Shown here piece after piece: positions 780-45,721 of a stretch of 58,239 nt of DNA. Position 1 is the first letter of the stretch, and each line of letters opens with the position of its first letter. Source of the stretch: Trichonephila clavata (lineage: Eukaryota); contig BMAO01019611.1 in assembly GCA_019973975.1 (NCBI GenBank), positions 76,564 through 134,802 on the forward strand, in the 5' to 3' direction. The translations under genes were made by a program, and so were the position numbers. Under the pieces are notes generated by a model. The model was not told the origin of the DNA and did no database searches. It worked only from the letters and a program-made list of their open reading frames with translations.

Positions 780-1000
780 GCCGATTTAAGCTAATTTCGG
801 GACTTGGGCGCAAAAAGACCGCCTTTGACACTGGCGGATCGAAATTTATTTCGAGAAAACCTAATTAAGTCCAGCTTATACGAGCCCCACGCCCTTGGGC
901 GCCCGCCCCATGCGCCCATTGGATCCCTGTCCTCATAAATTGAATTGAGAGCCGTACAAATTTTTGTGGACAAGGATATCCGCCAAAGTCATATTGTCGA
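780..1000. other. Isolated GC-rich island in AT-rich DNA with internal GGGCGC(C) repeats and a CCAAT-like element. Function unknown.
   Basis: …CTTGGGCGCAAAAAGACCGCC…CACGCCCTTGGGCGCCCGCCCCATGCGCCCATTGGATCCC…. Confidence 0.25.
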
Positions 1001-1960: not shown

Positions 1961-2974
1961 ATTTATAGTCTGCGTGGGTGCTTTCTAGCTCTTTCTCGAA
2001 AAATCCACTTTCGTCAAGGTCGTGATGTTAAAATATTTCTTCGGTAGTTTTTAGAAGCATCTATACCAGGGATGGCGAACCTTTTTGAGACGTGGGTCAA
2101 ATTTTGTTCATATTTTTTTTAAGTACTAGCTGGTGAGTCACTAATGCCCATTTGCATAAGTTATGTTTTAAAATTTTTAACTAAGTATTTTTAAAACTGA
2201 TCATCTTTAAAATTCAATTGGCTTAACGAGTAAAATAAGCGAGGTTTGATGATTTAAAATTATTTAGTAGGGTTAAAAGTTCTTAAGTGTTTGGTGCAAA
2301 TGGCAATGGTGTTTGAATGAACAAAGAGTAACGAAAATTACATTCTATATATATTGTGAAGTATTATTTTTTAGTGTATATACGTATATTTATATATATA
2401 TATATATCACTAATAATATTATTCGGGCTCCAAGTGCCACCTTCCCTTGAATATTTTCTGGCAGAGATATTTATAAAAAAATATATATTTCTGCCTTTTT
2501 TTGATAAAATGGCAAAGTCTAGCTCTATTAAAGTTGTATGCAGTCACATTCCATATTCTATCAAATTATTTTAAAAGTCAAAAATGAAGAAATTTTTACA
2601 GGGATTAATAACATGTCTGTTTTTAGAAATACTTAAGGTGCTTTTATAATTGAAGGAAAAAAAATTACTATGAACTAAATTCATGTGACGTCATAGTCAC
2701 GATAAATGCAATTATCTGTTTTCAGAAAATCAGTTCATGCACTTCGTTGTTGCCAAATTACGCTTTTTACAGAAACTTTTTTTTTTAAAAATAATATTTG
2801 TCACTTTATTTAAAAGTACATGTATAAAACAAGACTTTTTTTTCTTTAATTTAAAAATATTTTTGCAGAAATTTTCTTTTTATAACTCTTGAGCATCTTT
2901 ACCCAATTATGCAATTTGAAAATTTACCTAAGTTTTACAAATAGAATAAAAAATACGAGCTAGTTTATTGTACG

Positions 2975-3208
2975 TGTTGCATCTCTATTTATATAATATC
3001 TTTGTTTTTGTAACTTTAGTTCTTCTGATCTGGCAACAAAAGAGTTGTCAATATTGTGGCTGATGTAAGAATGTAAGAACACGAATAAAAAGCTTACGAT
3101 CGAGAATAGTTTTCTTCTGTTATTTTTAATCATTTTAAAGAGATTAATCAATTCTAAAAAATATTTTTATTTATTCCGTATATTATTCGCGACTACTCAT
3201 CTACAAAC
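2975..3208 (+). repeat. 5' LTR of the gypsy-like element
   Basis: Repeated at 7332-7568. It differs by an 8-bp AATGTAAG duplication plus a few substitutions. Confidence 0.85.
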
Positions 3209-3235
3209 TGGTGACCCAAAGATATTCAAAATCTG

Positions 3236-4060
3236 ATGGATGAGAATAATGAAATGGCCGTCGCGAATTCGAACGAGCAAAAATTTGAAGCTAATAAGGT
3301 AAGCCTGAAAATTCCTCCTTTTTGGGAAGAAAAGCCTGAAATATGGTTTTTCCAAGTTGATGCTCAGTTTTCTATTGCTAATATAAATCAAGAAGAAACT
3401 AAATTTAATTACCTTGTAGCTAGCTCAATTAGATCCAAAATTTATAGAAATATATGGGATATAATTCAAAGCAATGAGAAGAATAAATATTCTTGTGCTA
3501 AAAATAGACTTTTGAGTGCTTTTAAAGAAAGTGAAGAAAAAGGCATTAAAAAATTGCTTACTGGAATTTCATTAGGGGACATGAAACCCAGTCAACTTTT
3601 GAGGAAAATGAAATCGTTGGCTGGAGATAGTATCACAGAAAAAGTTTTAAGGACTTTATGGCTAGATAAATTACCGGACTCCATCAAAAATATTTTAGTT
3701 GTTAGTTTGGAAAATTTAGAAAATTTGTCCGTTATGGCAGATAAAATTTTTGAAATAAATTCATCGCCAGAAATTTATTCTGCTACTGCAGATAATTCTG
3801 CTATGAAAAATATTCTTGAAAAAGTAAGCCTTTTGGAAAAACAGATTTCAGAATTATACATCAACAGAAGAAAATCAAGAAGCGAATTTAGAAATTCCAG
3901 TCAAACACGAAATAAAAGTCGAAGTCGATCTCGAAAACGCTTCGACCCCAAAGGAAAATATTGCTATTTTCACTTCCATTTCGGTGCGCGATGCAAATCT
4001 GAAAAATGCAGTCCGCCTTGTGCATGGAATAGAAATACGGAAAACTTCAGTCTGCAGTAA
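3236..4060 (+). CDS. Gag-like capsid/nucleocapsid protein of the LTR element. It has a basic RS/KR-rich tail and a Cys/His cluster.
   Basis: ATG at 3236, 23 nt after the PBS. The C-terminus reads RRKSRSEFRNSSQTRNKSRSRSRKRF…CYFHFHFGARCKSEKC. Confidence 0.65.
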   Translation: MDENNEMAVANSNEQKFEANKVSLKIPPFWEEKPEIWFFQVDAQFSIANINQEETKFNYLVASSIRSKIYRNIWDIIQSNEKNKYSCAKNRLLSAFKESEEKGIKKLLTGISLGDMKPSQLLRKMKSLAGDSITEKVLRTLWLDKLPDSIKNILVVSLENLENLSVMADKIFEINSSPEIYSATADNSAMKNILEKVSLLEKQISELYINRRKSRSEFRNSSQTRNKSRSRSRKRFDPKGKYCYFHFHFGARCKSEKCSPPCAWNRNTENFSLQ

Positions 4061-4140
4061 ATATTGCGACAAATTCTGCTGCAGAACATTAAAAAGCCTG
4101 TCGCAAATTTCGATTATTCGTTAAAGATCGAACGACAAAT

Positions 4141-4677
4141 TTGCACTTCCTGGTAGATAGTGGAGCTGATTGTTCAATAATACCAGCCACATCTAAAAAT
4201 AAACAATCATCTGATTATAAATTATTTGCAGCAAATGGGACAGAAATTCCAACCAATGGAATTAAAGTGCTAAAGATTGATTTGGGACTCCGCAGAGAAT
4301 TTTTATTTCCATTTATTATTGCAAGAGTTAGTAAAGGAATCTTGGGAGCTGATTTTCTACACAAATTTAATTTATTGATTGATATCAACAAAAGAAGATT
4401 AATTGATGGAATAACACAACTCAGTATTCCGGGTGAAATTTTCTCCATCACAAATGATCTTAATGTTACAACTTTAAATAAAGGTGAGAAATTTTCTAAT
4501 TTACTTTTACAATATTCTGAATTAACTAAGCCTAATATTCTACCTACTCAAGTGAAATACGATGTCAAACATTTAATAGAAACAAAAGGTCAACCAATTC
4601 ATTCTAAAGCACGACAACTTGATCCTAAACGTCTAGCAATAGCTAAGGAAGAATTTAAATTTATGCTTGATAATTAA
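4141..4677 (+). CDS. Retroviral-type aspartic protease (pol, -1 frame relative to gag)
   Basis: LVDSGAD active-site motif. There is no ATG, since the TTG 'start' is an ORF-finder artefact. It is expressed by frameshift or readthrough. Confidence 0.7.
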   Translation: MHFLVDSGADCSIIPATSKNKQSSDYKLFAANGTEIPTNGIKVLKIDLGLRREFLFPFIIARVSKGILGADFLHKFNLLIDINKRRLIDGITQLSIPGEIFSITNDLNVTTLNKGEKFSNLLLQYSELTKPNILPTQVKYDVKHLIETKGQPIHSKARQLDPKRLAIAKEEFKFMLDN

Positions 4678-4679
4678 GT

Positions 4680-5806
4680 TATTCGTCCATCTAGCTCACA
4701 ATGGGCGATTCCATTGCATCTTGTAACCAAGAAAGATGGAACATTCCGTCCATGTGGAGACTATAGACAACTTAATGCTCAAACATTTCCTGATAGATAC
4801 CCAATACCACGAATAGAAGATTTCCACCATATTTTAAAAAAACACTACAATATTTTCTAAGATAGATTTAATTAAAGCCTATTATCAAATACCTATCGCA
4901 GAAGAAGATAAATGCAAAACTGCAATTATAACACCTTTTGGTCTATACGAATTTAACGTAATGAGTGTTGGCTTAAAAAATGCTCCTGCCACATTCCAAA
5001 GATTCGTACATGAAGTTTTTAGAGGATTAGATTTTGCATTCCCTTATTTAGACGATATTCTTATTGTGTCAACTAATGAAATGCAACATGAAGATCATTT
5101 AAAAATAGTTTTTGAACATTTAAACACTTATGGATTAAAAATAAATATTTACCAATCTGTGTTTGGAGTTGAAGAAATTGAATTTCTAGAATATCTTATT
5201 TCGAAAGAAGGTTCTAAGCCTCTCCCAGAAAAAGTCAAAGCCATTACAAATTATAAAAAACCAGAAACTCTACATAATCTTCGTATTTTCCTCGAAATGA
5301 TAAATTTCTACAGAAGATACTTAAAAGATGCGGCGAAAAACCAAGCCTTATTACACGATTATTTAAAAGGAGCCAAAAAAAGAGACAAGAGAAAAATACA
5401 GTGGACAGAAGAAGCCGAAAAACAGTTCGAAAATTGTAAAAATGACTTGAGCAATACAGCACTGTTATCATTTCCAAATCCCGATTTACCTCTTGCATTA
5501 TTCACAGATGCTAGTGATACTGCTATAGGTTCAGTTCTACAACAATTTGAAAATGATACATGGAAGCCAATTGGATTTTATTCAAAAAAACTAAACCCTA
5601 CACAACAAAATTATAGCACATACGATCGTGAACTTCTAGGTATTTATCTTTCCATTAAATATTTTAAACATTTGCTAGAAGGAAGAAAATTTACAGTATA
5701 TACAGATCACAAGCCTTTAACCTACGCATTTTTACAAAAACCTGATAAAGCATCCCAAGGCAACTACGACAACTTCAATACATTTCTGAATTTACAACAA
5801 ATATAA
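4680..5806 (+). pseudogene. Reverse transcriptase + RNase H of the LTR element, with one frameshift near 4850-4960
   Basis: RT motifs [13 protein letters not shown]…[11 protein letters not shown]…[13 protein letters not shown] (frame 3), then FAFPYLDDILIVS (YLDD box) and TDASDTAIGSVL…YSTYDRELL (RNase H) in frame 2. A poly-A run at ~4838-4848 shifts the frame. Confidence 0.75.
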
Positions 5807-7202
5807 CTTATATTAAAGGAGAAGATAATATAGTTGCAGATGCATTTTCAAGAATCGAAACAGTTACAATAATCGACTATGATGCAATAGCAGATGAACA
5901 AATCCAAGATATAGAATTGCAACAGTTAATGAAGAGTAACTCTTCTATAAAATTCAAGTCATGCACATTACCATCAGGTAAAACACTCTGGTGTGATATT
6001 TCCACACCAATATAAGACCCTACATTCCAAAACAGTTTCAGCAACAAATATTTCAACAAATTCATGGTTTTTCACACCCTGGAATTAGATCAACTATTAA
6101 ACTAATGACTGAAAAATTTATCTGGCCAAATATGAAAAAAGAAATAAGATTATGGGCAAGAACATGTATTCCCTGTCAAAAATGTAAAGTCCACAGACAT
6201 ACTAAATCAAAATTTGGAGAATATGAAGTACCTGATGCTAGATTTAGTGTGATACACATTGATTTAATTGGTCCACTTCCACCATCGCAAGGCATGACAT
6301 TTTGTATGACCTGTATTGACCGTTTTTCGTGTTGGATGGAAGCAGTTCCCTTGCCTGATTGTAAAGCAGAGACAGCTAGCAAAGCCTTTTATGAACACTG
6401 GGTTTGCAGATTTGGAGTACCTGTGAAAATAATTACAGATCAAGGAAGGCAATTTGAATCCCAGTTGTTCAGAAGTTTAGCTGCTATTTGTGGAGCTAAA
6501 GTAGCTCATACAACTTCCTATCACCCTCAATGCAATGGGAAAGTGGAAAGGTTACATAGGACCTTAAAAGGGGCAATCAAAGCTCATAACAACATCAAAT
6601 GGACACAGACTTTACCAACGGTATTGTTAGGATTACGATCGGCTCTACGTGGTGACACAAATTACACCATTGCACAAATGGTTTATGGACAAACTATCCG
6701 ATTACCAGGAGAATTTTTCGAGAAACCGAAAAACATCTTGGATACAGATACGTTTGCGGAAGAATTACAGAAACAAATGGATCAGTTACAACCACTGAAA
6801 ACTCGCCGACAACCTTCTCAAAAACACTTTGTCCATAAAGACTTGCATACCAGTACACACGTGTTCATTCGCGTCGACAGAGTAAATAAACCACTTGAAA
6901 CTCCTTACGATGGACCGTTCCTAGTGGCTAAAAGATACGACAAATATTTTACTGTGACAATTAAAGGCAAGGACATCAATATATCTGTAGACAGATTAAA
7001 ACCTGCATATTTGTTGTTAACTGATGGTGATAATCCTGATCATCTCAAACAATCAGAACATGCACCAACCCTGCCCGACAAAAAACTGATTGTGCAGACA
7101 AAAATTGAAAAACAGCCACCAGATTTGCTGGAAAAAGGTGTCCAAAAAACAACTACACGCTCTGGTAGACACATAACGTTTCCATCCCGTTACAGAAATT
7201 AG
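5790..7202 (+). CDS. Integrase (HHCC zinc finger, DDE core, GPF module). The N-terminal linker TNITYIKGEDNIVADAFSR is in frame 3 before a stop/shift, and the ATG ORF is 6105-7202.
   Basis: HGFSHPG…H…CIPCQKCK (HHCC); IHIDLIGPL / ITDQGRQF (D,D); YDGPFLV (GPY/F-type motif typical of Ty3/gypsy IN). Confidence 0.8.
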
Positions 7203-7568: not shown

Positions 7569-10500
7569 CAATGTAGAACACGTGTTTATATTATCATGTG
7601 ACCGTCATGAATTTAGTTCATTGCAATGGGTCGATTCATCACTAGAGGGCGCTGCGATCGTGGCCATCATCGCGTGATTAACAACGTGCGATCATGTAAA
7701 CAAATAACAGTTGATCGTATGACACTTGTGGTTGCGCGCTAACTTTCGAATTTTCAAACATTATTATTTTATATTCTTTAAATTCTTTTTAGTACTTTAA
7801 AATAGTTTTATAATAAATTTTCTACTTTTTTTAGTTTTTGTATTGTGACCAAATATATATATATAGTTTTAGTTTATAGTATTAGATTTAAGTGTTTAGT
7901 TTATACTTCTATCCTTTGGCTTCGAATTTTTGTATACTTTTAGGTTTAATAATTATTTTTTTATTAGTGCCAGCCATATTGTGATTAATAAATTATGCAA
8001 CGCTCTTTTGAACAAATTGCTTCTTGAAATTGGATAAATCTACTAATATCGCGAATCATTATGTAAGCGAGTTTTTCCGAGAAAAATTCGTGCAGACTGT
8101 AAATAGAAAGTAGCTCGCCAAAACAAAACATTGTTATGTCTTCTGTCAGCAAGAGCGATTAGTTAATACTTCGGCTGTTGAATAGGACCAAAGACTGTTA
8201 ATCAACTTATTATGATGATTGGATAATAGAGATTCCATGTAAATGTATAACCGTTACCTGAATACATTACTTATTTGTATTCCTAGACACTGTTAGTTGT
8301 GTCTGAGTGCTGTGAAGACCTCCTGGGATTTTGTGAATTCTAGCGTTGTGGCGTTTCTAAGGATTGTTTTAAGTTTTCATTGCTCCTGACCCATTCTTTG
8401 TAAGCGCAGGTATTTATTTCTTACCGAATTTGTGACATTGACTATATTTTTTTACATAGAAACTTCTTATAATTACAAAAAAGCTTGTGAATTTAACTGT
8501 TATTTTCTAATATTCATATAAAGTTTCCTTTTTGCTGTTCTTGAAAATTCATTTCGGTATTATTATTAGGACATCAAAGTTTTTAATGTTAATAATTCTT
8601 TTATTTTTTTAAAATTGTAAGGAAATATTTGTTTGCTTTACATCTATTGGACAATTTATATGCAATTCAATAACTCATTAGAAATAATTTGTAATAAAGA
8701 ATAATCCAATAAAATTTAATCATTATTCCTAAAAAAATTATGTATTAATATGATTCCTTTCTTTAACTTAATAGTGTAAGAGTATTTTCTTTTTTAAACT
8801 TTGAAGACAGTCTAAAGGGAAATTTCTAAAAGAAATTTCAAACCTTTGTAAATGATAATTACTAAGTAAAGTCAGACAATCAAAACTGGCAAATGTGTTA
8901 TTTCATTATAGATTCATCATATATTTCGAAAAATCTTACTATGTCTTGGGAATTTTTATAGAACAGTTGTTTAAAAAATTAATATACAATAACAATGTTT
9001 CAATTTTATGTATCCATATTAATGCAAATAAAGATTGAAACTGACAAAAAAAAATACTCTTTTGGAATACATCTTAAAAAAATACTCTTCATAAATACAT
9101 AATGAAGCAATGTCACTGATAGTCTTTCAAAAGAATATGAAAATGCATTTTTTAAATTACAATGGATTTCTTAATTAAAAAAAATAAAATTTTCACATGC
9201 TTCACTTGTATAAAATCATGTAATATTAAAATTAAATGTTGATAAATGATGCAAGTTAAATAATTTTAATTACTAATTTAAACTAGCTAACAAAAATTTT
9301 GTATGCTCCAAAATGTAAAAATTTTCATGAAAATAATTTAGCATGTTTCAAACAATTTCTAAAATTAATCCTATATTTTAGTATGATTCGTTTTTTTTTT
9401 TTTTCATGGGGACAATGATTTATATAAAAAAAATTCAAACATTTGTAGGTGATAATTCTAAATGTTATTATTTTACAACATATCTTTAAAGGCTTCATAA
9501 TGTATTGGTACAAATCATACTATTTTAAGGCCACACAATGTGCTAAACATTTCACAAACAATTTTGACATTTTCTTATGGCCAATATCATTGAGAAGCTT
9601 GCCACCAAATTTCAGATTTGATAATAAATTAGTTTTAAAGATATTTGAAGAGCTTAGGTTTTGGTTTCAGTTTCATTTTAAAGCAGTTTTCCACTTTTAA
9701 ATTGAATTAAAAATATTTTTGAGCCCAATCAACTCTTGCAGTGTGAAATGGTTAATTATTTCAGTTCTCATTACTAAAAGCATTTCTGCTTGATAATGTT
9801 TTGAGTTCTCATTGTTACTTAATTAAGATTGTTTTCAAGGCTAATTTTTGTTTTAAAAATAGTTTATATAACTTGAAAGCTTTATCATTAATTTTTTCTT
9901 GTTGGCCCAAACATTCTCAGGTTGCTGTGAGAAACAATATTTCGAAGAGATGGACACTACTGAAAAGGATGTATCTAAAAATCACCCTCAATTAATACTG
10001 CAATAAGACTTTTGAATTCAAGTATTGCAGATAAAACTGAATATTCCCATGATGTACTTAACTACATGATAATATATTGTCGTACTATATTTTAAAATTT
10101 ATTGCGTAATAAAGTTGTGCAATAAAACTCAAACTTGCTAAACTGTGCCCCAATTTAAAACTGATTTTTTTTTTTTTTTTTTACAAACCTGGTGATTTTT
10201 ATAGCTAAAGTTAGTATCATTATTTTATACATAAATACTTTGTATTTCAAACAGTGCTGGTTTAAGCTCATTTCAAGCACTGGGTACAGAAGATCCTCAA
10301 TTTTTAATAACAAATTCAATACTTTTTTAAACTTGCCTTTGTGTAAAATGCCTATAACATGTTGATCTACTTTTAAAAAATTATTATACAACATTAAAGG
10401 AATGTTTCATCAGAAAAGGTGCAAATATTTTAAAAAATTCAATTTAATTATCCTTAGTTTTAAATGTATTTTTCTACTTATTAAATTATATATAATTTAT

Positions 10501-12121
10501 AAAAATAGTATAATTTATCAATAAACAATAGATGGCTCCAAAATATAAGTTAAACTTGTAAAATAGAAATTAGCATATTGGATCGACTTAATATGAAAGT
10601 TTTTGAATAATAATAAATATTTATCCATGGTGAAAATGAATTTTATTTTTACAACACAATGAATTGTAAAAAAGAAAAAATTCAATACAATATATATAAA
10701 AATGAATAGTTGCATAAAATTTCCATTCACAATTTCTACTGGTTATGTATCTTGACCGGGTATTGTATGTGTAGTGCATGCAAACTAAAAACTTATTTGG
10801 AGAAATGTATTGACATTTCATTGTTATCACTAATATGTATCTAAAGTATCTTTTTATATATATTTATATTCACATTTTAAAAAAAATGGAAGATAAAAAA
10901 ACATCAGAGAGAGGGGAAAAAAGATACAAAATTCTCACTCTGAAGTTAAACGTGTGAAAATATATTATTAAAGATTAAAATCATTATTATACATCAAGTT
11001 ACTAAAGTTTATCATGAATAAATTGAGTTCCATTCTAATCAAAATCACAGTTTCTACTACTTATAAGCAATAACTAATTATAGCATTAGTTTACCAGGAA
11101 AATCCTAAATTTCAAGAAACTTTTCAGTTTCCTAAATTATACTTGAGCAAAATATTAAATTATTTCAAAGTTTGTCTAAGAAATGCTCAATCAGTACGCA
11201 TACCATTTAAAAACTTTGAACTTATGTATTAAACTGGCAAATAATTTTGCCAAGCCAAAACGCATCAAGAACTTTAAAAAGTATTATTATTACTACTGCG
11301 TTCATGAGCTATGATGCATATGAGCAGGAACAGTTCCAGTTATTGGCTGTACATTGCAACAACACCCCACAGAATCAAATGTCTATACATAAAGCCATAT
11401 TTGATTTCGTGATCCTAATTCTGAATAAATATACAATTGATGCAAGTACTCTTCTTGGGTCAATATTTGTAAGTAACTCAATGTAACAAATTTATTCAGG
11501 ACTTATAAGCAGGATAATATCAATATACATGTCTTTTAGACTTTTATATTTATGTAAAAATAAATCTAATGATATAAAGCAAATCTAATCTATAATGATA
11601 AATCTTCTACAAATTGTGCAAATACCTATAAATGCTTATTTGTAATACATAGTACAAAAATTTATACATCTCTGTGATTAGAGGCGGATTAAGCGGCTGG
11701 CGGCCGCCAGGGGCCCCGAGCACCAGCAGGGGCTCCAAGCTGATAGACTTCAGTTATAAGTTCAACGTGCAACAAAAAATCTTGTGATTGCAAATCCAAT
11801 GATTACCCACATTTGAATCGTATAACAATTAGTGTTGCCCTCATATATTACATGTAATTGCGGTTAAAAAAAAAAATCCGTCTTTTTTTTTTTTTTTTAA
11901 TATTTACCTAAACTTTGGTCTTTAATATATGTTTTCGGTTCCAAGTTTTTAAAAAGTTGATCCCAGATTTCTTTTTTCAATAATGATCCCAGATCTCAGA
12001 CTATAAAAAACTACCAATGTTTTTAGTTCTTTCGAAAGAATTTAGTATTTGAAGGTTCGTGATTTATTGTTATCTGGATTTCCGTGTTTATATTTTGAGA
12101 ATGTGGGGAAACAGATCGAAG

Positions 12122-12287
12122 CAGTGTCGGATTAAACGACATGGAGGCCCCTAGGCAGTCGAGTTCTCGGGGCCCTGTAGCCTGTTTTTGGAGCACTAAC
12201 AGAAAACAGAACATGCTTTTGTGGGCCCCTAAAAAGCACGGGGCCATAGGCAACTGCCTACTCCACCTAACGAGTAATCCGGCACTG
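12122..12287. mobile_element. 166-bp hAT-type MITE nested inside the hAT element. It has CAGTGTCGGATTA…TAATCCGGCACTG termini and a perfect 8-bp TSD GATCGAAG.
   Basis: GATCGAAG at 12114-12121 and 12288-12295. The termini are related to the host element TIR (…CGGATTAA…). Confidence 0.6.
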
Positions 12288-15200
12288 GATCGAAGTATTT
12301 TGTAAATTTAGTATCAGTTTTATTTCAGTCAGCATGACAGAAAAAGTGAAATATTTAAGGGAAATTGAAATTTCTCTAAATTGATGAATGAATCAAATAG
12401 TGAAATAGATGAAAGTTATTTTTTGGAAAAAACTGTAGAGGATCTTTGGCTATTGATATAATTGATCACAGGAATATTTGCATACTTTCATAAGGTATGA
12501 ATTTTGCTGGCATTTTTTACCATTGGTCAACTTAAATTTGATTAACTTTTAAAGTTAAAATTTCAGGTAATGTGCATCTTGTTCTTTAATTTTTTTATTG
12601 TTTTGGTTTCATAGGATCATTTTTACACCATTTGCTTTCATATGTTCGATTTTGTGTGTTTCTAGTTTGATAATGTTTTCCTTTTAGTATTTCTACATTT
12701 TAAATTTTTGTAATATAGAGAAAGGGAACTATGTACAGGGCCAGCCATGTTGGTGGTGTGGCGGATGCTGTGCGCAGGGGCCCCAGAATAATCAAAAACT
12801 AAAATGTACTCTTGCATATGAAAACTTGACAATATTCCTATCGTAAGAAATGTGAATTTTGTCGTAAACATTACTATTGTAGATCTCTGAAATTCAACAA
12901 TCTGCAAACTAATTCTTGAAATCATGCAGACTTTAACGTTTCGCACCATCACAGATGAAGCATATAATAAGAAAGGATTTTAAATTCTGAGAAACATTCC
13001 TGAACAACATTTCTTCTTATCAGGGGCGTAGCTATCACCGTATCAATGATACGGGCTCCCCTAGAGGCTCTGGACGTGTGTAAGCAAAAAGTCGTAAAAT
13101 ATTATCAATGGTCATATTAAGAGTTCCTTTTTACGTTTATAAAATAGTATGTCACTGGCATAAAACGATATAAGTTTTCGGTGTGAATTCTGAATCTCAG
13201 GAAACGCAATAAGAAAAGTTTAAAAGCTGGTAAAATTACTCAAAATAATGAGAAGACAAGGAGTGGTGTGATCTTTGAATGTAGGAAAAACTTCTCATTC
13301 AAAGTAGATCAACAGAAAGATCGTTTGAAGTGAAATACAGATAACACTTATTAGGATGGAAAAAATCCATTCTCAGAATGTCATTTGCCTGTAAATGACA
13401 ATAACCCTTTCGTCTATTGATTGATTGACTGTAATAAACGTCGCACTAAGAAGCTACAGGAATCCCTTAGTCGGAATTTTTTTCATAGATGGTCCAGTGA
13501 AGGAAAGTATTATATTATATTTATCCCGGTTCTCTTTTTTTTTTATTTCTGTAACAACTAAGAGACTGGATATGCATTCATGGTGAGCAAGGGCTGGATA
13601 ACTGCTTCCCGTTCCGATAAAAGATAGGACCATAAGCGCCTGAAGTCTTCTGTCACCCTCCAAGTCTATAGTTAATTATTTTTCAATTAGTATCAATGAG
13701 TTCTCAACGTTGGTTCTCTGGGGAGAGGGGGGAGAAGCGCGTTAAAGAAGAATTTCGGCACATTGGACAAAGCACGATCAAGATTTATGACTGGCTTAAG
13801 GACGAATGAAAAGAATGGGACAGAATGACCCTGAGAAAAAGACCCCTTTTCGAAGTAAACTGAGGAAATTTTGCATCAATTTGACTTCCGAACTAATTTC
13901 TTTTAGCTTCCTGCGCTTATACAGACAAATCGGAGAACCGTGTTTAAACAACAAAAAAAGGTAACTATATTTTCATTTTCAAATTCTCTTTTAGATTTTT
14001 AAGATTTAATGCGCAGGTATTTTAATCAGTGCGTAAGATAAAGTGAAAAAAATATTTTGTTGCATTTGTGTCATTACTATTTTATTTATTTATTTATTTT
14101 TCGATTTACATACATAAATATAAATAACTGCCATCAGTTTCTTAGAACATTTTTATGATTATTAATATATTTAAATGTGTTTTCGTAGCTTGAATCTTAA
14201 AACATTTTCGATTGGCATTGTTATTCAAATGAAAAAATATTATTTGCCTCTCTTATAAAAATAATTTCTTGAGTCAGTTATAAAAAGCGATAATAGTTCA
14301 TTTAAAATACAAAACATTAATGAGATTTTGAGTACATTCATTAATTATTTACCATACTTAAAAGAATCCTAACAATAACTCGAAATTGAAATAAAACGTT
14401 ATTATATTTATTGTGATTTTTTGTTTGTAATCCTAACGTATTACGATAATTTTGTTTAGTAATATATGAGCCAATCTATAATTTCTAAATATTTCATTAA
14501 AATTGTTTCAAACTGTTAAAAGAATTTTCAAAGAAAGAAAGTATATTAAGTTTACTTAAAAATACACTTTTCTTTCTTTTTATTGAGCGACGTGAAATAA
14601 ACACATAATTTTTCTAATATACTTTAAAACTGCTAAGAGAACCATTATTTTGTAAGATTAAATTTGAAAAGCATAAATTCTTTTTGTCTTTTTTGTATTT
14701 ATTGTCATTTTAAGAGTGATTTGCTCACGATACTTTTTTGATTAAGATCTTTTGTCCAGACAACTTGAAGGGATATTCAGTGCAATCTAATAATTAAATA
14801 TATGTGTATAACTAATTATAAAAATACATAAAAATCGTATAATTATTTTAAAATGCATAATTTCTTTAAAATATTGTATAACATTCTGTATGCTTCTAAT
14901 AAAGTTAATCAAAATTCTGATCTATAACTATATTTAAAATCTTTAAAAAAGGCAACAATGCCAATACTATAGCAGAAATTTCTTTAAAAAAGCATTTAAT
15001 GAAATGTTTATTTTTACAGAACAATTATAAATGTTGAAAAATATAGGTACTATATTTATAGGTAATTGCTCCTAGTTTAAAACTATTTAAAGTGGTTGCA
15101 AAATGTATTACAGAAATAAAAATATGATAAACTCAATTTATAAAGTAGATAAGAGAGAGAGAGAGAGTGATTTCAAACAAAATAGAAATGTGAAAAGTTA

Positions 15201-15873
15201 TTCAATATGTTGTAAGATTGCTTAATTTTGAGAAATGGAACTTTGAATGTAGATATAAATTTACTTGAAAAATTGTAGATTTCTTTTGTGATATTGTGGC
15301 ATTTGTGTATGTCAAACAGTTTTGAGTTATCTCAGAAATTTCAAGTTATTTTGGAAATGTTTTATTGTTCTGTTTAGTCACAAAGTATTAAGATTTTTGA
15401 AAAAACAAACAAGTATAGTAATAATACTAAACTAGAATGTGTAAAAAATATTTGTATTCAGTTAATGTTTTATTAACTTATATTTGGAAACTTTAAAAGG
15501 AAACTTTACAAATCAAGAGTATTATAATTGTTTTTCCAGTTTTTAAAAGAAAACCTTAGAATTTTGGAATGCTTACTTTTGGTTGAGACATTTTAATAAT
15601 TTTGATTATAAGTAATCCGGAAGCTAAGCTATGTTTTGTTCTAGAAATTAAACTATGATTTCTGTAAAGAATAAAAAAATTAAACAAAATATGTGTGTAT
15701 TAAATCGGAAATTTCATACTTCTATCACACAGAAAATTTGAAAATAGATAAAATGTAATTTTATGAGAGTTTGGGGGGGGGGGGATTTAATGCTCTTTAG
15801 AAATTTTAGCTAAATTTGGACTGGATATTAAAAATTGCAGAGGGGGGGGGCAATCATTTGATAATGCTCTAAT

Positions 15874-17300
15874 ATGTCCGGGCGGTACTCAGATCTACAG
15901 GCACGTATTAAAGAACACAGTTCAAGCGCAGTTTATATTCCTTGTGACAGTCGTTCTTTAAATTTAGTAGGAAATTTAGCAGCAGAAAGTTGTAGCGATG
16001 CAATTAAATGTGTTTTATGCTTGTACACACAGAAATTATTCTATTTTTTTCTGTGTCAATCCATCGCTTGCGAATTTTAAATAAAAATCTGGAAAGAAGT
16101 AAACATGCAATATCTGTGAAAAAAATTTCAGATACACGATAGTCAGCAAGAGCAGATGCCGTACGAGCTATAAGACTTGGTTATACACACATAAAAGAGG
16201 TCTTGGCTGAAATCCGTGATACAAATGAGGAGATCACAATACTGGAGACAACTTCTCTTTTGATACATGGTAGAATGGTCATTGGGGCACATGATCTCTG
16301 ATGAGGTCTTCATCCCCTATCTTGAATTTGAGGGAGCATTAAAAATTACACTTGCCATGTTTAGTGGAAGGTGGGGAAAAGTATGAAAAGTTTAAAAGTT
16401 AAAAATTTAAAAATAAAATTAAAATTAAGAAAGTATATTAGATTGCGACCTGAAATAATAATAATATAAGGAAAAATTTCTGGAGCTATTTTTGTTTGCG
16501 TTGGGGTGTTTGGTAAAAGAGTGGAATACTGAGTCGACCGCGGCTAACTCCGTTGCCGGAGGCTAGCTTACGGCCAACTTAATCATTGGGTACTTTTGAA
16601 ACACATGGAAAAGTATGAAACTTCCCTAATGACCGTGATTTGGGATACCATACTCCAGAGGGTGAGTGCTACTAGCAAAGCATTACAATCAGTTGGGTGT
16701 GAGCTATTAAAAGGATCTAATCTACTGAAATATTTAGAAAATTATATACAAAATTTCAGAAATGAATTTGGAAAAGTAGAATAAGAAGCAACTGCTTTAC
16801 AGGACTCTCATTTGAAAAGGAAGTTGGACAAGCTTGCAGGCAGCGAAAGAGAAAAAATATTTTCGGTGAAACTAAAGAAGGTCATGAATTTGAAAATAGG
16901 AAAAATTTCTTGTTCAACTCATTCTATGTCATATGCTATAGGACAAGTGCTGAACTATCCCGAAGAGCTGGAACTTATAAAACTGTTATAGAATACTTTT
17001 TTGTATTTTTTGAAGAAAGGTTTTCTGAAATTAGCAAGAAAGCTGTACAAAAATTAAAGGATATTTACAAAGACGATATTGAATCGCTTAATTTTGACGA
17101 TGAATTGGATCAGTTTTTGCTATTTTTAAAAGAAAACAAAGATACTATGAACACTCCAATAGAAATTTATTGAGTTGCAAAAGAAATGGTCTCGACTTTC
17201 CCTAATGTCGATATACTTTTTAAAATATTTTTAACTATACCGATATCAAATACATCTAGTGAGAGATCTTTTTCGGTTTTAAAGCGCGTTAAAAATTATT
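15874..17300 (+). pseudogene. Decayed hAT transposase (ZMYM1-like / DUF4371 + hAT C-terminal dimerisation domain), fragmented over three frames
   Basis: MSGRYSDLQARIKEHSSSAVYIPCDSRSLNLVGNLAAESC (DUF4371 C-end). …ARAIRLGYTHIKEVLAEIRD…. …FPNVDILFKIFLTIPISNTSSERSFSVLKRVKNYLRSS (hAT dimerisation). The N-terminal half is missing. Confidence 0.7.
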
Positions 17301-19079
17301 TAAGAAGTAGTACAGCATGTACTGAAGTACAGAAGTACTGAACAGCATGGCCATTTTATACATAGAACAAGGTGTTTTGGACCAAATAGATACTGCAAAA
17401 ATAATCGATGAATTTGCCCAAGAAAAATCAAGACGTAAAGCTATATAGCAAAATTTTAAACTTTTAAGTTAGGTGTTTTCTTTTTAATTCTTTAAAATAA
17501 AGTTAAAAGTTTTTTTTGAGCCGTTAATTTTTTTTTAGTTATACATTTTATTTTGAGAATTTAAGGTCAGCGAATTTTTTTGACTCTTCAGCCCAGGGGG
17601 CCCCAAACCTTTTACCGCCAGGGGCCTCCAACTAGCTTAATCCGCCTCTGTCTGTGATAGGTTTATACCACAGTTAAACTCTGAAAAACAAATGTTCTGT
17701 AATAGATACCACACAAATATATTACAATTATTTATTTGTAAAAGAATTATGCCTCTTTAAAATGCCTTTTTTTAAAATTTTGATCATGTAAGAGTGAGCA
17801 GGACTTTTATATTCCATAAATGGGCATAAACAAATTCTACTATACACAGATTTTAATTAAAAATTTTAATACCTTAATTTATAATCACATATTTGGAATT
17901 CAATTCTCGATAAATCATATCTTTTACCTAAAATAGCGCAGGGAGTAGGCTTTCAAAATGTTGCATAATTTTTTTACATGTAATTTTACATATGTTAAAT
18001 GATAATTTTGACTTCTAATGCTAAAAAATGGTACTTGATTCATCATCAAGTGTAAACATTAATGAAGCTGTAGTAAATTAAAATATTTTTCCATTTTTAT
18101 AGTGAATGCTTCTTGAAAATGTTTTTTCTTTTTCCCTGTAATATTCTAAAATTATTAAGTAAAACAAATTTTTGATTTATATGTATGTATACTTGTTTTT
18201 GATACGACATATATGGTTACATATCAGATTTTTGCGTCCTAATTTTTTAGATAATTAAATACTGAAGTACCTCTCCTTAATTTCTGTGAAGATGTGTAAA
18301 ATAAGTAAAATTTAGATTAACCAAACATATGTTCTATTGTTTATGTGTTGGACATACCTGTCCTTAATTTTACCAAAAACATATCAATGGGTTGCAAAAT
18401 ATTATTTTGGGTGGACATTAAGGTATTTTCAATATTTAAAACATTGAATACACTAAAAAAATCTCTTGCAATGAAACCCTCTGTTAAAGTTTTCATATGC
18501 AAATCACTTACTGTTATTTGCAATGAATTTATTTTTCTGTATAATATCCTTCTGCTTCTATTTTGTTTTGTAAAAGGCAAGCTTATCCAGGAAGGAATGG
18601 AAAAAGCTGGCTAACGTAACGTTCGCTTTTCCTGTATTAAAAGAATTTTTAAAATTTTTTTACATAATTATGCATGTATATGTAACTACTCATTAATTTT
18701 AAGCTTATAAGGACGTAAAATAAAAATTACATGAAATTTAAAATGTAGTATAGTAAAATTGATAAGTAGAAATTTTCTTTTATCATAACTGTTTTTTTAA
18801 TATTGGGAAAAGTTAATGCAATCAGTGTTTTAAGAATATAGATAGATACTTGCTTCTCAATTTCTATATGATCACGCTCAGTACTGAACTGATTTATTCC
18901 CTGATTTCTGAAAAAATAATGAAATATGAATCCCACAAATTATTAAAATATATTGTACGTTCTTCACTATAAAGCATTATACATTTATGGATGCATATTT
19001 TTTAAAGTACATATGAACTTTGTTCATTTACTTGTATTTGTAAGTGTATTGTTCTGAAAATTACAAAGCAATGACTTTT

Positions 19080-19819: not shown

Positions 19820-20210
19820 AAGTAAAAAACTTTTTTAAAAACAAGCTTTTATTTAAAAGCGCTAAAAAGAATAAAATAAACTTTTCCTTTAAAACTTTTT
19901 TTACTATCAACTTATAACGTCATTACACAATTTATATGATATAAAAGCTTGTCGCGAGGTTTATCTGTGTAAATAAACAAGTAAAATAAATAACTTGACC
20001 TGACTGATTTTAATTTTTTAAAATTCAAACTAAGTAAATACGAGTACTTAAATCTCGTGTGACAAGCTTTTATATCATATAAATTGTGTAACGACGTTAT
20101 AAGTTGATAGTAAAAAAAGTTTTAAAGGAAAAGTTTATTTTATTCTTTTTAGCGCTTTTAAATAAAAGCTTGTTTTTAAAAAAGTTTTTTTACTTTTTAG
20201 TTATCGCTGG
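19820..20210. repeat. Large near-perfect inverted repeat (hairpin/foldback). Arms are ~19820-19953 and ~20061-20210, with a ~107-bp spacer.
   Basis: Arm 1 …CTTTTATTTAAAAGCGCTAAAAAGAATAAAATAAACTTTTCC…ATATGATATAAAAGCTTGTC is the exact reverse complement of arm 2 GACAAGCTTTTATATCATAT…GCGCTTTTAAATAAAAGC…. Confidence 0.85.
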
Positions 20211-20782
20211 ACAGGCTTCTCAGCCTGTTCAACTCATTCAACGTTAGTTCGCCATCCCTGGTTTAGCTGAATCAGTTCTCGCAAAAAGGGTATTAGACGA
20301 AAAACACAATCTTTTTAAATCCGTAATTTTTAAGCAATATTTTCAATCTTCGTGCAGATCTTGGGTAATATTGTTCTACATACGAAAAAAAGGTTTCGTG
20401 AGATTATCTTCATAAATGACGAAGTTATTCAATGTTTAAAATTTTGACTATTTTTTGAAAAATCTTAAAGAATATATTATTTATTTGGAATATTTTGAAG
20501 GTAAGGGATATATTTCTCTAACATCTTCGAAGAAAAATCTAGTTATTTATTAAAAAACTTCAAAAGGTATTTAAAGATTTGTATTAATCAATAAAATGCT
20601 TAAAATTCAAAACGCATGTTGTAATCAAAAAAGCAAGTTTTATCAACTAATGATAATTTTTTGTTGGACATCGAATATCTTCTACGTAAGAATCTATTTT
20701 TTTAGTTGCTCATGTCATCTTTAGAAACTTGATTTTGAAAAAATAATTAACCATCGCATTATTTTTATACAGTCAGACCTCC

Positions 20783-20975
20783 ATGTATAACGAATGTATG
20801 TATGTATGTATGTATGTATGTATGTATGTATGTATGTATGTATGTACGTACGTACGTACGTACGTACATACATACGTACATACATACGTACATACATACG
20901 TACGTATATACGTACGTACATACATACATACACACACACACATACATACATACATACATACACACACACATACAG
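20783..20975. repeat. Compound tetranucleotide microsatellite (ATGT)n-(ACGT)n-(ATAC)n-(AC)n
   Basis: Read directly: tatgtatgtatg… tacgtacgtacg… catacataca… acacacac. Confidence 0.95.
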
Positions 20976-22079
20976 TGTAAGTTAAATAAAAGCTTGTAAA
21001 AACCTTTACAATTTTGGACACAAGTCGCCAAAAATTATGCCAACATGGATGTATTTATAATTCTTAGAATAATTAGTTTTAATCAATTAATTTTTATTAA
21101 TTAAAATTAAATTTCTGTATCGTCATGCAAAATAATCATGTTTTTAAATTTCAGCTCCTTCGAGCGCTTTAAAAATGTATTTTACCAACGATTGAAAATT
21201 TGAATAAGATGAATAAATATGGAGAGAGTGTAAACTAATAGTAGGAATTGAAAAAAAAAAGGTAATCAACTACATACTTAACAAATTCAGAGCATTCATA
21301 ATAGATCACAGAAGTGATACCCTGATCTGTGTATGTTTGCAAAATTAAAAATCTTCGAATTCGAAATGCTAAGAAAATATTTCAGACTCTTTTTAAAACT
21401 TTAAATATCGTCAGAGCGTATTTGATAAAAACAAAAAAATATTGAAATTGAAGTAATTAAAAAGTGGTCTTTTTTTTAAAATTTCTTTGAAAGAAATTTC
21501 TTTTGGAACATCTTTTAATTTATGTGATACTGAAGATTTATTTCTTCTCTTGAAAATTCTTTGGGTGGATGGTGGTTTGGAAAAATAAAAAACTATCTAT
21601 TCTTTAGTGGAAACCGAAAAAAGCTTTCTTACCTGCAGGCAAATTTTTCTTTTGCATTGTAGCAATTTAATATTAATTTAATTTATAGCAATTTAACCGC
21701 TACAGTATTTTATTTCTTACATCATAGTAGATGCAAATCCGAAAATTCCGCCAAAATACTCAGTCGAATCAAACACGTGGCTATTTGTTTTGTATATCAT
21801 CACGTGATTATGACGTCAGGTGTATCGAGTCCATTTTATTATAGATATTTCCTAACGATAATATTTTGTCGAGATATATATTTGTTATAAATAAGGAATT
21901 AATAATTGGTGTAAATTATTATTTGAAAGTGATTTAAAATTTCCAATTAAAAAATTGGATAATTATAAGACATTAAAGTTAAGATATATTTTTTATCACA
22001 CGTAGTTACTGCAGTGAATCCCAACAATTTATTTACTGAAAGATAATATGAGCATATTTTTATTGATAAAAAGAACAAA

Positions 22080-37742: not shown

Positions 37743-39860
37743 AATGAGTTACAAATATCAATTGCAAGCAGGGAAAAGGAAAAAGTTTGAGGAAGAGGTT
37801 AAGAAAAATTTACCAAAAATGACAACTTTTCTTGCTAAAGATACAGTTGATAAATACCAGGAAATATGATGTACTTATTTGTTAGACATAACCGAGATAA
37901 TTCCTGAATCTGCATCTTTAGTAAATAAAAGTGAAAATAAAGGGAAACCAGATGAATCAGAAAATGACAATAAATCGGATGTACTCCAAAAAATTTATGA
38001 AATACCTGTGATATCAAAATGGCCTGATATTAAGAGTGATGATTTTATTACAAATGTAATGATTCAGAAAATAAAAAGTTATCCCCTAGAAAATACTGAA
38101 CAAATTATATCATGAGGGGGATAAATAAATGATTGAAGTTTAAATGAGAGCAATTTTTTGAGAATAAAGCCTGAAGGAGACAAAGAAAAGAGAGACTAGA
38201 AAAAAAAATAGTTTAACTAATTGAGGACACACTGACGGGAAACATTTGATTATCCTGCTCAAATCTCATGAGGAAAGCAAGTCTTATTTGAATTCTATGG
38301 TTGCGCTAATAACAAGATTATCCCTTATTGGAGGAGTAGATGTTGGCTTGAAAGGAAGCGAAGCTGAAGATTTTGAGAATTGTTATCATTAAATGACTTG
38401 CTTCTCAAGAATTAGCTTTTCGGGGATCCACTGAGGATATAATTAAGTTGCCTTGTGTATTTGGCTAAATTTGATTACTTACTATCCGAGCATTTACAGC
38501 AATATGTGAATAAAGGAAAAGGGTCAGTAAGCTATCTATCTCACCAAATATGCAATTAATTCCTGAAATTGATAAAAATAAAACTTCCATAGAAGAAATT
38601 AAAGAAGCCAAATACCATTATTGTAGACTCCACCCCAGATATAAGTCATCATGACCAGCTTACGTTTATTCTTAAGTATATGAATGACAATACAGTGATT
38701 GAGATATTCTTGGGATTTATTCAGTTGGGGAGGCACACAGCGGAATATTTAACAGAAATAGTTATAAAAAATTGAATGAGTTAGGATTAGATGTTGAAAA
38801 TTGTCAAGGACAAACGTATTATAATGCCGCAAATATGTCGGTGTCACAAAGGAGTACAGGCAAGAGAGAATTGTCACCTAATGCTATTTATGTGGCATGT
38901 TCAAATCATTCATTGAATCTTGTAGTTAATTTTGCATGTGAGTCCGGCATGGAAGTAACTAACTATTTCACAACTGTATAACAATAAGTATTTACACGTT
39001 CTTCTCGGCTTCCCCTTAAAGATGGGATCTTACTGCAAAGCTGTAAAACGGTTAATTGAAATTAGATAGTCTGCCCAATATGAAGCAGTAAACGCTTTGC
39101 ATAAAAACTACAAGGCAATAAAAAAAAAATTTTCCAACTAAGCAATAATACAGAAGAGAAATCTGCAGTTAAAACAAAGCGAAGGCTCTGTACAATAAAA
39201 TGGACACTTTCAAAACAGCGCTATTAACATAGATTTGGACAAGGATTTTGGAACGAGTGAATGCAACCAGCAAAACTTTACAAACCACGGACATGGATAT
39301 ATCACTTGGAGTAGAACAAATGACATCTTAGTTGCAGAAATAAGAGAACACTTTAATGAAACTGAGATAGAAACGAAAGATTTTTTTTCGATGGCGAGGA
39401 TACCAAAAACATACATTCTAAAGATGAACTTAAAAGAGAGAAGAGGCGAAAAGTATTTTTTTCTGAAACAACTGAAAACAAAATCCCATCAAAAGTGAAA
39501 GAAAGGTTCAGAATTGAAGTATTTAATGAGATATGCGGCAATATTACTCGAGAGCTTAAAAAAAGATATAATGTTATGAAGAAGTAACATCAGCATATAA
39601 ATGTTTCTTCACCCTAGACATGGAGGAAATCAAAATATCAAATGAAATTTGTGTGAGAAATATAGATATAATATTGAAGAAACCAAAGAATATTTATACC
39701 AAAACAAAATTATTCATCTTCAAGAATTTTGCAAACATTTAAACAAAAACACAATTTATGAAAAATCTGAGTTTGTCCAGATGACGAAATCAACTTTTCC
39801 AAATATTCGAACTCTATTGCAAATTTATTTAATGATACCCATTTCTAAAGCGTGAGAACG
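37743..39860 (+). pseudogene. Second hAT (ZMYM1-like, DUF4371 + hAT dimerisation) transposase, frameshifted. It is related to, but diverged from, the one at 15874-17300.
   Basis: …AKYHYCRLHP/ISHHDQLTFILKYMNDNTVIEIFLGFIQL…, MNELGLDVENCQGQTYYNAANMSVSQRSTG…AIYVACSNHSLNLVVNFACESG, …FPNIRTLLQIYLMIPISKA(*)ERS(*)S. The spacing to the terminus matches copy A. Confidence 0.65.
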
Positions 39861-40189
39861 ATCTTAAAGTATTACGAATAAAAACATACTTAAAGTCTAA
39901 TTTGAGTAAAGAGGACGATGCATTGTCAGTATTATATAGACTATAACGCTAAGGAAACACTTAATACTGATACTATCATATATCAGTTTGCCAATATTAA
40001 GTCACAAAAGGAGTATCGTAATTTTTGTTGTGTTATATGTTATATCTTAGAATGTATATGTTTTTAATTTTACCCTTTTATGTTATATTTTAAAAAATGT
40101 TTCTATTTTAAATATTATTCAAGAAAAATACTTTTATTTTTATATGTATTTTCAGAATAAAAAATTAAATATTAATTTATATTTCATTT

Positions 40190-40261
40190 GTTAGCGGATC
40201 CAAGATCCCCTCTTTGTATCCGCCAGAGCCAAGGGCCCCAAACAAGCTTTAACCAGCACTG
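40190..40261. repeat. Right terminal region of the second hAT element (…GCCAAGGGCCCCAAACAAGCTTTAACCAGCACTG)
   Basis: Homologous to the right end of the 11679-17650 element (…GGGGCCCCAAACC…CTAGCTTAATCCGCCTCTG) and to the MITE end (…TAATCCGGCACTG). The left terminus was not found. Confidence 0.5.
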
Positions 40262-45587: not shown

Positions 45588-45694
45588 ATGCAGTGGTGTA
45601 ACAGAGAATATTAGGGCCCCCTGCAAAGTCAGGTTTTGGGCCAATCTAGAACCCTGGCCTCCCCCATGATGTGGGGCTATACGTTACACCACTG
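45588..45694. mobile_element. 107-bp MITE-like element with perfect 12-bp TIRs CAGTGGTGTAAC…GTTACACCACTG and an internal GGGCCCCC palindrome. It belongs to the same GGGCCCC-rich family as the 12122-12287 MITE, and degenerate relatives lie at 13023-13075 and 12730-12790.
   Basis: TIRs read directly. No TSD was recognisable. Confidence 0.45.
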
Positions 45695-45721
45695 GTGTCC
45701 AGCATCCTGTAGCCCTGTGTA

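Follow-up and report, generated by a model that had tools for sequence, protein, structure and literature searches.

The 166-bp MITE described here was very probably inserted once into an ancestral ZMYM1-like hAT, and was then carried as a passenger through the amplification of that hAT. The DNA analysed, referred to below as the window, is a stretch of 58,239 nucleotides from Trichonephila clavata. In the mechanism that we propose, the MITE lacks a transposase of its own and would rely on a hAT transposase acting in trans for its cut-and-paste movement, which would leave an 8-bp TSD. A single insertion would have placed it in the 5' subterminal non-coding region of the ancestral hAT, 443 bp from the left end, after which it would have become a fixed passenger and the composite hAT would have transposed repeatedly with the MITE aboard. 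The copy in the window would be one daughter, later shortened by about 1.7 kb within the transposase and disrupted by frameshifts. Nesting and passenger amplification are ordinary transposon biology, and in nephilids few DNA transposons are commoner than hAT elements: 399,282 hAT-Charlie copies make up 6.19% of the T. antipodiana genome (PMC7976613).

The MITE and its boundaries lie at the following positions:

12122..12287, plus strand: non-autonomous hAT-type MITE (166 bp) with CAGTG…CACTG termini; copies found beyond the window
12114..12121, no strand: left 8-bp TSD copy of the MITE, GATCGAAG; the same duplication is kept in six Nephila pilipes hAT copies
12288..12295, no strand: right 8-bp TSD copy of the MITE, GATCGAAG
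12122..12138, plus strand: left TIR of the MITE, CAGTGTCGGATTAAACG, 13/16 match with the right TIR
12271..12287, minus strand: right TIR of the MITE, reverse complement CAGTGCCGGATTACTCG, 13/16 match with the left TIR

The first-pass annotation had described a 166-bp hAT MITE with a perfect 8-bp TSD, and these coordinates give it exactly. The termini are CAGTGTCGGATTAAACG and CGAGTAATCCGGCACTG, and the two TSD copies in the window match at 8/8 positions. The TIRs are of the YAG…/…CTR hAT type (CAGTGTCGGATTAAAC versus CAGTGCCGGATTACTC, 13/16), and the termini are conserved across 10 copies, which range in length from 164 to 168 bp. The arms form an imperfect palindrome with GGGGCC-type motifs at 12143-12152, 12169-12175, 12223-12229 and 12240-12245, that is, two subterminal motifs per arm; they are putative transposase-binding sites. 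GGGGCCC is over-represented, with 10 matches where 0.65 are expected. As DNA, the MITE is predicted to fold into a long hairpin (-34.4 kcal/mol, z = -4.3). The entire window was scanned for perfect 8-bp direct repeats around YAG-type TIRs with at least 11/16 matches, and two configurations alone passed: the MITE and the host hAT at 11679-17650. Block shuffles gave 0.43 such configurations on average, and 0.03 when only elements of up to 600 bp were counted.

The MITE has no transposase coding capacity, and the only results of searches with its peptides were spider gene models, short and spurious, and unrelated repeat proteins. A profile search with seven MITE peptides returned four proteins and zero new copies, and P0129, P0132, P0134, P0136 and P0138, which came from the representative search, were set aside as repetitive and unrelated. 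Neither Rfam, searched at gathering thresholds, nor tRNA scanning gave a match anywhere in the window, so the MITE is neither a known RNA nor a tRNA-derived SINE. A conserved MITE 17-mer had 38 matches in a metagenome scan; none extended past 18-26 nt, and thus all are due to chance. The 166-bp sequence is a non-autonomous hAT-superfamily MITE, and it is part of a genuine MITE family.

The element in which it resides has the following parts:

11679..17650, plus strand: host element, a decayed, internally deleted ZMYM1-like hAT of 5,972 bp; TIRs TAGAGGCGGATTAAGC / CAGAGGCGGATTAAGC, 15/16
11671..11678, no strand: left 8-bp TSD of the host hAT, TCTGTGAT
17651..17658, no strand: right 8-bp TSD of the host hAT, TCTGTGAT
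15797..17445, plus strand: frameshifted hAT transposase remnant, matching residues 113-547 of the relative P0001; N-terminal half deleted
16268..16592, no strand: 325-bp segment within the transposase remnant, present only in the window's hAT copy and bracketed by CTTTTGA[T/A]ACA

The MITE begins 443 bp inside the left end of this host hAT, in the 5' subterminal non-coding region. The host is 86-91% identical to N. pilipes copies, and its transposase best matches hAT protein fragments of N. pilipes and T. clavipes (72-87% identity). Dimer_Tnp_hAT (PF05699, E = 7.1e-11) was the sole domain detected in the reconstructed pseudo-protein; the remnant aligns to arthropod ZMYM1-like proteins, the relatives carry DUF4371, and one host-family copy (L007) has a 630-aa transposase ORF. 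The DUF4371 / TTF zinc-finger N-terminal region is absent from the window copy, which begins at residue 113 of P0001, and is present in N. pilipes copies, so the window copy is a deletion derivative of the family and not an intact member. It is non-autonomous, with about 1.7 kb of transposase sequence deleted, frameshifts, and the extra 325-bp segment. We also considered the end at 10252 and the end at 17650 as the two ends of one element; this pairing was rejected, since the flanks mismatch and the true left end, with a perfect TSD, is at 11679.

The MITE also exists outside any hAT, as three stand-alone copies in two other Trichonephila species:

T. clavipes, L049 15808-15971: stand-alone MITE, 89.8% identity, TSD ATCTCTCT/GTCTCTCT, 7/8
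T. clavipes, L048 12336-12502: stand-alone MITE, 83.8% identity, TSD GTGATTTG/GTGAATTG, 7/8
T. inaurata, L050 10510-10676: stand-alone MITE, 87.4% identity, flanks GATTTAT[AT]G/GATTTATG, 8/8 with a 2-bp AT slip

All three have identical CAGTG…CACTG boundaries, unrelated flanks and their own 8-bp duplications, and the host hAT aligns to these loci only over the MITE coordinates, 443-610. The first-pass annotation had staked its reading on further copies with 8-bp TSDs elsewhere, and these are such copies. Neither the window nor about 178 kb of spider loci, largely from N. pilipes, yielded a stand-alone copy; the sample is small (about 236 kb) and biased toward hAT loci. With six nested copies from N. 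pilipes, described below, nine copies are known beyond that of the window.

Two hAT ends in the window bear on the origin of the MITE:

17589..17650, minus strand: right end of the host hAT; nothing else in the window is as closely related to the MITE arms, and GGAGGCCCCT and GGGGCCC occur in both at matching offsets
38255..40261, plus strand: second decayed ZMYM1-like hAT remnant, with right end …AAGCTTTAACCAGCACTG

The MITE termini had earlier been related both to the TIRs of the host and to the right end at 40261, and both likenesses were borne out. MITE bases 1-63 are 70% identical to 17650-17589 (E = 1.7e-4), with an alignment score of 25 against a shuffle maximum of 15, and the MITE shares a CAGTG..GGxTTAA pattern with the 40261 end (CAGTGCTGGTTAAAGC) and with the ends at 776 and 10252. 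For the 40261 remnant, no left end, partner TIR or TSD was found. In both arms the MITE resembles the right end of the related hAT, instead of having one arm like each end. The alignment supports a common ancestry of the MITE arms and the host hAT right end.

The likeness of the ends also bears on which transposase may move the stand-alone copies. Mobilisation of the MITE in trans by the host-family transposase would be allowed by this likeness, though not proven by it. The terminal bases differ, the MITE having CAGTGY and the host family CAGAGG, or (C/T/A)AG(A/G)GG over at least 15 sampled ends; the transposase that moves the MITE may thus come from outside the host family. It is quite plausible, if somewhat short of probable, that the stand-alone copies were moved by another hAT lineage with CAGTG termini, of the 40261 type or unsampled, and not by the CAGAGG-type host family. 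This reading agrees with the six termini of the three stand-alone copies, which are CAGTGY or CAGCGC, and with the terminal CAGTGC at the 40261, 10252 and 776 ends. Past base 6, however, the MITE (CGGATTAA…GGAGGCCCCT…GGGGCCC) is far more similar to the host-family right end than to the end at 40261, which counts against this reading. Besides the terminal bases, hAT transposases often need subterminal motifs.

The evidence for a single ancestral insertion comes from N. pilipes. In six copies of the host hAT from this species, the MITE occupies the internal position that it has in the window, with the same flanks and GATCGAAG duplication. These hAT copies have differing genomic flanks and their own 8-bp TSDs: against TCTGTGAT in the window we found ACCCTCAG/ACCCCCAG, AGTGTATT, CTTACAAG and ACTGAGCG/ACTGATCG, with four copies complete besides that of the window. 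The distinct flanks and TSDs indicate that the hAT copies are independent transpositions and not segmental duplicates. Since the site and the TSD are the same in all six sampled N. pilipes copies, the insertion is older than the amplification of the hAT lineage, and the combination of a shared inner TSD with differing outer TSDs indicates that an ancestral hAT took up the MITE in a single event and later multiplied with it as passenger. The first-pass annotation had the MITE inserting into the 6-kb hAT of this locus. The nesting in a ZMYM1-like hAT of about 6 kb stands, and the local event does not, as the six N. pilipes copies share the insertion.

A recent jump of the MITE into this very hAT copy is, in consequence, very unlikely. 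Taken alone, the perfect 8-bp TSD and the intact termini of the window copy would suggest a fairly young event, but the same site and TSD recur in hAT copies that lie elsewhere and have outer TSDs of their own, and divergence between copies is about as great in the MITE as in its flanks: mean pairwise identity among the nested copies is 90% for the MITE and 88% for the flanks.

No empty site, that is, a hAT with a single GATCGAAG and without the MITE, was found: wherever a sampled hAT copy includes this region, the MITE is in it. Trichonephila contributed a single hAT copy to the sample (L005, from T. clavipes); it lacks host positions 272-4118 and is thus broken before the MITE site, so it could not supply one. 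This uniform presence, together with the strong hairpin potential, is what would be expected if the palindromic 166 bp were a module intrinsic to the hAT, such as a regulatory hairpin, with the flanking 8-bp repeat a coincidence. Such a module is highly improbable in view of the three stand-alone copies, with their exact boundaries, unrelated flanks and own 8-bp duplications, and of the chance expectation of 0.03 per window for the TSD and TIR configuration.

With the single insertion and passenger amplification retained as the best explanation, the fossil MITE might in addition have been co-opted by the host hAT in Nephila, for example to supply part of the transposase transcript's promoter, first exon or splice donor. 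Co-option would account for its retention in every sampled hAT copy. In three computational N. pilipes gene models (P0121, P0126 and P0127), MITE-derived sequence is joined directly to the transposase N-terminal peptide, and other computational models from this species have an apparent GT donor in the right TIR of the MITE (GAG|GTAATCC). We consider co-option improbable, and a broader biological consequence of the nesting would follow only if it were true.

An origin of the MITE from another superfamily with 8-bp TSDs (P element, Merlin or Zisupton) is scarcely credible: an 8-bp TSD is not restricted to hAT, but the ends and subterminal motifs of the MITE are homologous to those of an element encoding a bona fide hAT transposase (DUF4371 and Dimer_Tnp_hAT), and there is no P, Merlin or Zisupton coding sequence nearby.

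The MITE resembles known non-autonomous hAT elements and MITEs, such as maize Ds1 in relation to Ac, the human MER1-group derivatives of hAT-Charlie, and library entries of the "hAT-N" kind. Like these, it has an 8-bp TSD and short TIRs beginning with CAG, is below 200 bp, non-coding and present in multiple dispersed copies with palindromic arms, and is related at its ends to a hAT that encodes a transposase. Unlike these, it represents a lineage-specific family in which both arms are like the right end of the related hAT, and it differs from the related autonomous family in its terminal pentamer, CAGTG in place of CAGAG. No description of this nephilid family was found in the general spider and Trichonephila hAT/MITE literature, searched by topic rather than by sequence. 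The host has the Dimer_Tnp_hAT domain, 8-bp TSD and 16-bp TIRs of ZMYM1-like hATs (TTF-type zinc finger, DUF4371 and hAT dimerisation domain), and is set apart from them in general by the fossil MITE that forms part of the family consensus in the 5' region. As in other nested or composite transposons, an insertion in a master copy was inherited by all daughters; the one specific point here is that a hAT MITE lies within a hAT related to it.

The main use of these results is in repeat annotation, to which they contribute a nephilid hAT MITE family of 164-168 bp with CAGTG termini and an 8-bp TSD. In Nephila, the MITE sequence is an internal part of a hAT consensus of about 7.4 kb. Automatically built repeat libraries are therefore expected to split or mis-classify it, and "MITE" counts would be inflated by hAT copies. 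The shared nested insertion also provides a clean marker for timing the amplification of the hAT relative to the activity of the MITE.

The first-pass annotation had further proposed a family of GGGCCCC-rich mini-elements, at 45588-45694, 13023-13075 and 12730-12790. We describe these segments as follows:

45591..45694, no strand: 104-bp segment with perfect 12-bp inverted termini CAGTGGTGTAAC, not demonstrably in the MITE family
12730..12790, no strand: GC-rich internal host-hAT segment with GGGGCCCC, not a separate element
13023..13075, no strand: GC-rich internal host-hAT segment, not a separate element

This family lacks support, for want of homology, TSDs and independent copy number. Aligned to the set of MITE and hAT ends, the segments score 12 (45591-45694), 8 (13023-13075) and 12 (12730-12790), inside the shuffle distribution (means of 10-11), and the positive control scores 25. 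The 104-bp segment has no TSD and no second copy, and its inverted termini are of a common type: the window contains 52 perfect 12-bp inverted repeats spaced within 200 bp. The segments at 12730-12790 and 13023-13075 are without matching 8-bp flanks and without a copy outside the host hAT; both recur in all N. pilipes hAT copies in which that region is retained.

The first-pass annotation, a reading of the window from sequence, had proposed a 166-bp MITE with a perfect 8-bp TSD inside a ~6-kb hAT, and the element and its duplication were borne out:

12114-12121: left copy of the MITE TSD, GATCGAAG
12122-12287: MITE, 166 bp, starting with CAGTGTCGGATTAAACG and ending with CGAGTAATCCGGCACTG
12288-12295: right copy of the MITE TSD, GATCGAAG
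11679-17650: host hAT, 5,972 bp, TSD TCTGTGAT, TIRs TAGAGGCGGATTAAGC / CAGAGGCGGATTAAGC

The MITE ends match at 13 of their first 16 bases, and the arms also align further in, with small indels. When the whole window was scanned for perfect 8-bp direct repeats around YAG-type inverted termini (at least 11/16 matches), just two such TSD and TIR configurations were found, the MITE and the 5,972-bp element around it; 100 block-shuffled windows gave a mean of 0.43 configurations overall and 0.03 for elements of up to 600 bp. As single-stranded DNA, the MITE is predicted to form a long hairpin (-34.4 kcal/mol, z = -4.3). Such hairpin folding is usual for MITEs, and the 166-bp element is a textbook case of a non-autonomous hAT element.

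Copies of the MITE were sought at the protein level, through chance open reading frames crossing the element. A word-indexed search in both frames returned N. pilipes gene models only (n=8), all eight in a hAT context, as judged from flanking peptides or locus sequence. An exhaustive HMMER search with a 55-residue peptide brought in five more models, whose flanks differ: four belong to T. clavipes, the fifth to T. inaurata madagascariensis. Genomic sequence was examined for three of these five loci, each of which holds a full-length copy:

L049, 15808-15971: MITE, 164 bp, 89.8% identity, TSD ATCTCTCT/GTCTCTCT
L048, 12336-12502: MITE, 167 bp, 83.8% identity, TSD GTGATTTG/GTGAATTG
L050, 10510-10676: MITE, 167 bp, 87.4% identity, TSD GATTTATG, the left copy with a 2-bp AT slip

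The boundaries of these copies are exactly those of the window MITE. They are stand-alone copies, since the host hAT matches the three loci over its MITE coordinates (443-610) only. The further copies with 8-bp TSDs that the first-pass annotation had looked to were thus found, three in Trichonephila, each with its own duplication, which supports a mobile MITE family with 8-bp TSDs. The sampling amounted to ~236 kb, namely the window and nine spider loci (L001-L009) chosen around hAT-related or MITE-derived gene models, and therefore biased to hAT loci, plus the three MITE-selected Trichonephila loci.

Within this sample, six N. pilipes loci (L001, L004, L006, L007, L008 and L009) carry the MITE at 90-94.5% identity, and in 6/6 it occupies the identical site in the same hAT, between corresponding hAT flanks and with the GATCGAAG duplication, whose left copy shows point variants among them (GAACGAAG, GACCGAAG, AATCGAAG). 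The MITE-bearing hAT copies have differing genomic flanks and their own 8-bp TSDs:

Window: hAT TSD TCTGTGAT
L004: hAT TSD ACCCTCAG/ACCCCCAG
L006: hAT TSD AGTGTATT
L007: hAT TSD CTTACAAG
L009: hAT TSD ACTGAGCG/ACTGATCG

On average, MITE copies share 90% pairwise identity and their hAT flanks 88%. The simplest reading of these sequences would be one MITE insertion into an ancestral hAT copy, followed by at least five transpositions of the composite; on this reading, the MITE in the window is a passenger and not a local arrival. The nesting within the hAT at 11679-17650 thus stands, but its interpretation as a local insertion does not. Inheritance of nested transposons as passengers is commonplace. 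An empty site was not found among the sampled hAT copies. At ~10194-10478 of L006, a tRNA-like SINE sequence (GGGCCGCGGTAGCCTAGTGGTCAAGG…GGGTTCGATCC), absent from the other hAT copies, is inserted in the hAT ~45 bp 3' of the MITE.

On sequence criteria, the 5,972-bp element is a hAT and its copy in the window is non-autonomous. About 400 transposase residues could be rebuilt from forward-frame fragments (15797-17445), and the resulting pseudo-protein contains the hAT dimerisation domain PF05699 (E = 7e-11). By identity, its best database matches are fragments from Nephila pilipes and Trichonephila clavipes (72-87%), with ZMYM1-like proteins of many arthropods as more distant matches. On this evidence the window almost certainly comes from a nephilid orb-weaver, with N. 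pilipes or a close relative the likeliest source. The window copy has frameshifts, and residues 1-112 of the related protein P0001 have no counterpart in it. At host position 4096/4119 (window ~15775-15797) it is missing ~1.7 kb present in N. pilipes copies; this loss removes the coding sequence for the N-terminal transposase half (TTF zinc finger / DUF4371) and makes the window copy a derivative by internal deletion. Conversely, the window copy alone has a 325-bp segment (16268-16592) that splits the transposase remnant; no N. pilipes copy contains it. The segment is flanked by the direct repeat CTTTTGA[T/A]ACA, has a single weak match elsewhere in the window (81% over 54 bp, 37309-37361) and is probably another small insertion or duplication. 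In L007 (13568-15460), a hAT copy also bearing the nested MITE keeps a 630-aa open transposase ORF, which argues for fairly recent activity of the host family; some copies of the composite may have been autonomous until recently.

The proposed relationship between MITE and hAT termini held for both hAT lineages concerned. The host right end (17650-17589) aligns with MITE bases 1-63 at 70% identity, scoring 25 where shuffles reached at most 15, and GGAGGCCCCT and GGGGCCC lie at the same offsets in both. Both MITE arms resemble this end, and the MITE therefore shares ancestry with the host hAT lineage. Transposase may plausibly bind at the paired GGGGCC motifs. The terminal hexamer is CAGTGY in the MITE versus CAGAGG at the sampled host-family ends, bar single-base variants. 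The CAGTG pentamer is common to the MITE and another hAT lineage in the window, with ends at 776, 10252 and 40261, the last adjoining a second decayed ZMYM1-like transposase (38255-39913):

38255-40261, plus strand: second decayed ZMYM1-like hAT remnant, right end at 40261
776-865: solitary hAT-like left end of the 40261 type, CAGTGCCGATTTAAGC
10252-10284: solitary hAT-like left end of the 40261 type, CAGTGCTGGTTTAAGC

No left end of the second remnant was found in the window, nor a matching right end or TSD for the ends at 776 and 10252. After the 10252 end comes ATTTCAAG, similar to its left flank ATTTCAAA. Given the differing hexamers, the transposase that moved the stand-alone MITE copies may have come from either lineage, and cross-mobilisation by the host hAT is a possibility.

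Three mini-elements had also been taken for MITE relatives, a view that our comparisons do not support. The sequence at 45591-45694 has perfect 12-bp inverted termini, but such repeats within 200 bp are frequent (n=52 in the window); no TSD was found there, no second copy exists in the window or in loci L001-L006, and it resembles MITE or hAT ends no more than shuffled controls do. The scores of 12730-12790 and 13023-13075 likewise fall inside the shuffle range, and both are conserved internal hAT sequence, present in every copy having that region. GGGGCCC itself is enriched in the window (10 matches versus 0.65 expected), and all matches except those at 12777 and 45614 sit in hAT ends and the MITE.

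In spiders, hATs belong to the dominant groups of DNA transposons; in T. antipodiana, for instance, hAT-Charlie occupies 6.19% of the genome with 399,282 copies (PMC7976613; see also PMC8693713). General full-text searches of the spider and Trichonephila hAT and MITE literature returned no description of the MITE family. In several computational gene models of N. pilipes, MITE-derived sequence is spliced to the N-terminal exon of the transposase. This would fit co-option of the MITE as a 5' exon or splice donor, a possibility that seems unlikely. In four models annotated as hypothetical proteins (P0121, P0126, P0127 and P0128), a MITE-derived peptide is joined to the N-terminal peptide of the hAT transposase or to further exons. 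These chimeras are probably annotation artefacts, though they could reflect a MITE-containing 5' exon.

The rest of the window has ~30% GC and contains LTR-retrotransposon ORFs, a mariner remnant and C2H2 zinc-finger arrays, in keeping with a repeat-rich spider genome. Transposon coding remnants besides those of the hATs lie at four places:

3236-7202: transposon coding remnant
56431-58202: transposon coding remnant
32045-32662: transposon coding remnant
26453-26803: transposon coding remnant

These comprise an LTR-retrotransposon gag-protease-RT-integrase series, a Pao-like integrase (minus strand), a mariner-type DDE fragment and a reverse-transcriptase fragment. At 40630-48790, the 84-bp periodic repeats represent minus-strand C2H2 zinc-finger arrays with fingers of 28 residues. 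The arrays, with ORFs reaching 399 aa, lie inside a unit of ~2.35 kb or 5 kb that is duplicated in tandem. At 19824-20190, two 130-nt arms, 99% complementary and 107 nt apart, form a very young-looking, AT-rich foldback or MITE-like element, with no TSD obvious by inspection. Most top-ranked inverted-repeat calls stem from the compound tetranucleotide microsatellite at 20780-20990, which reads (ATGT)n-(ACGT)n-(ACAT)n.
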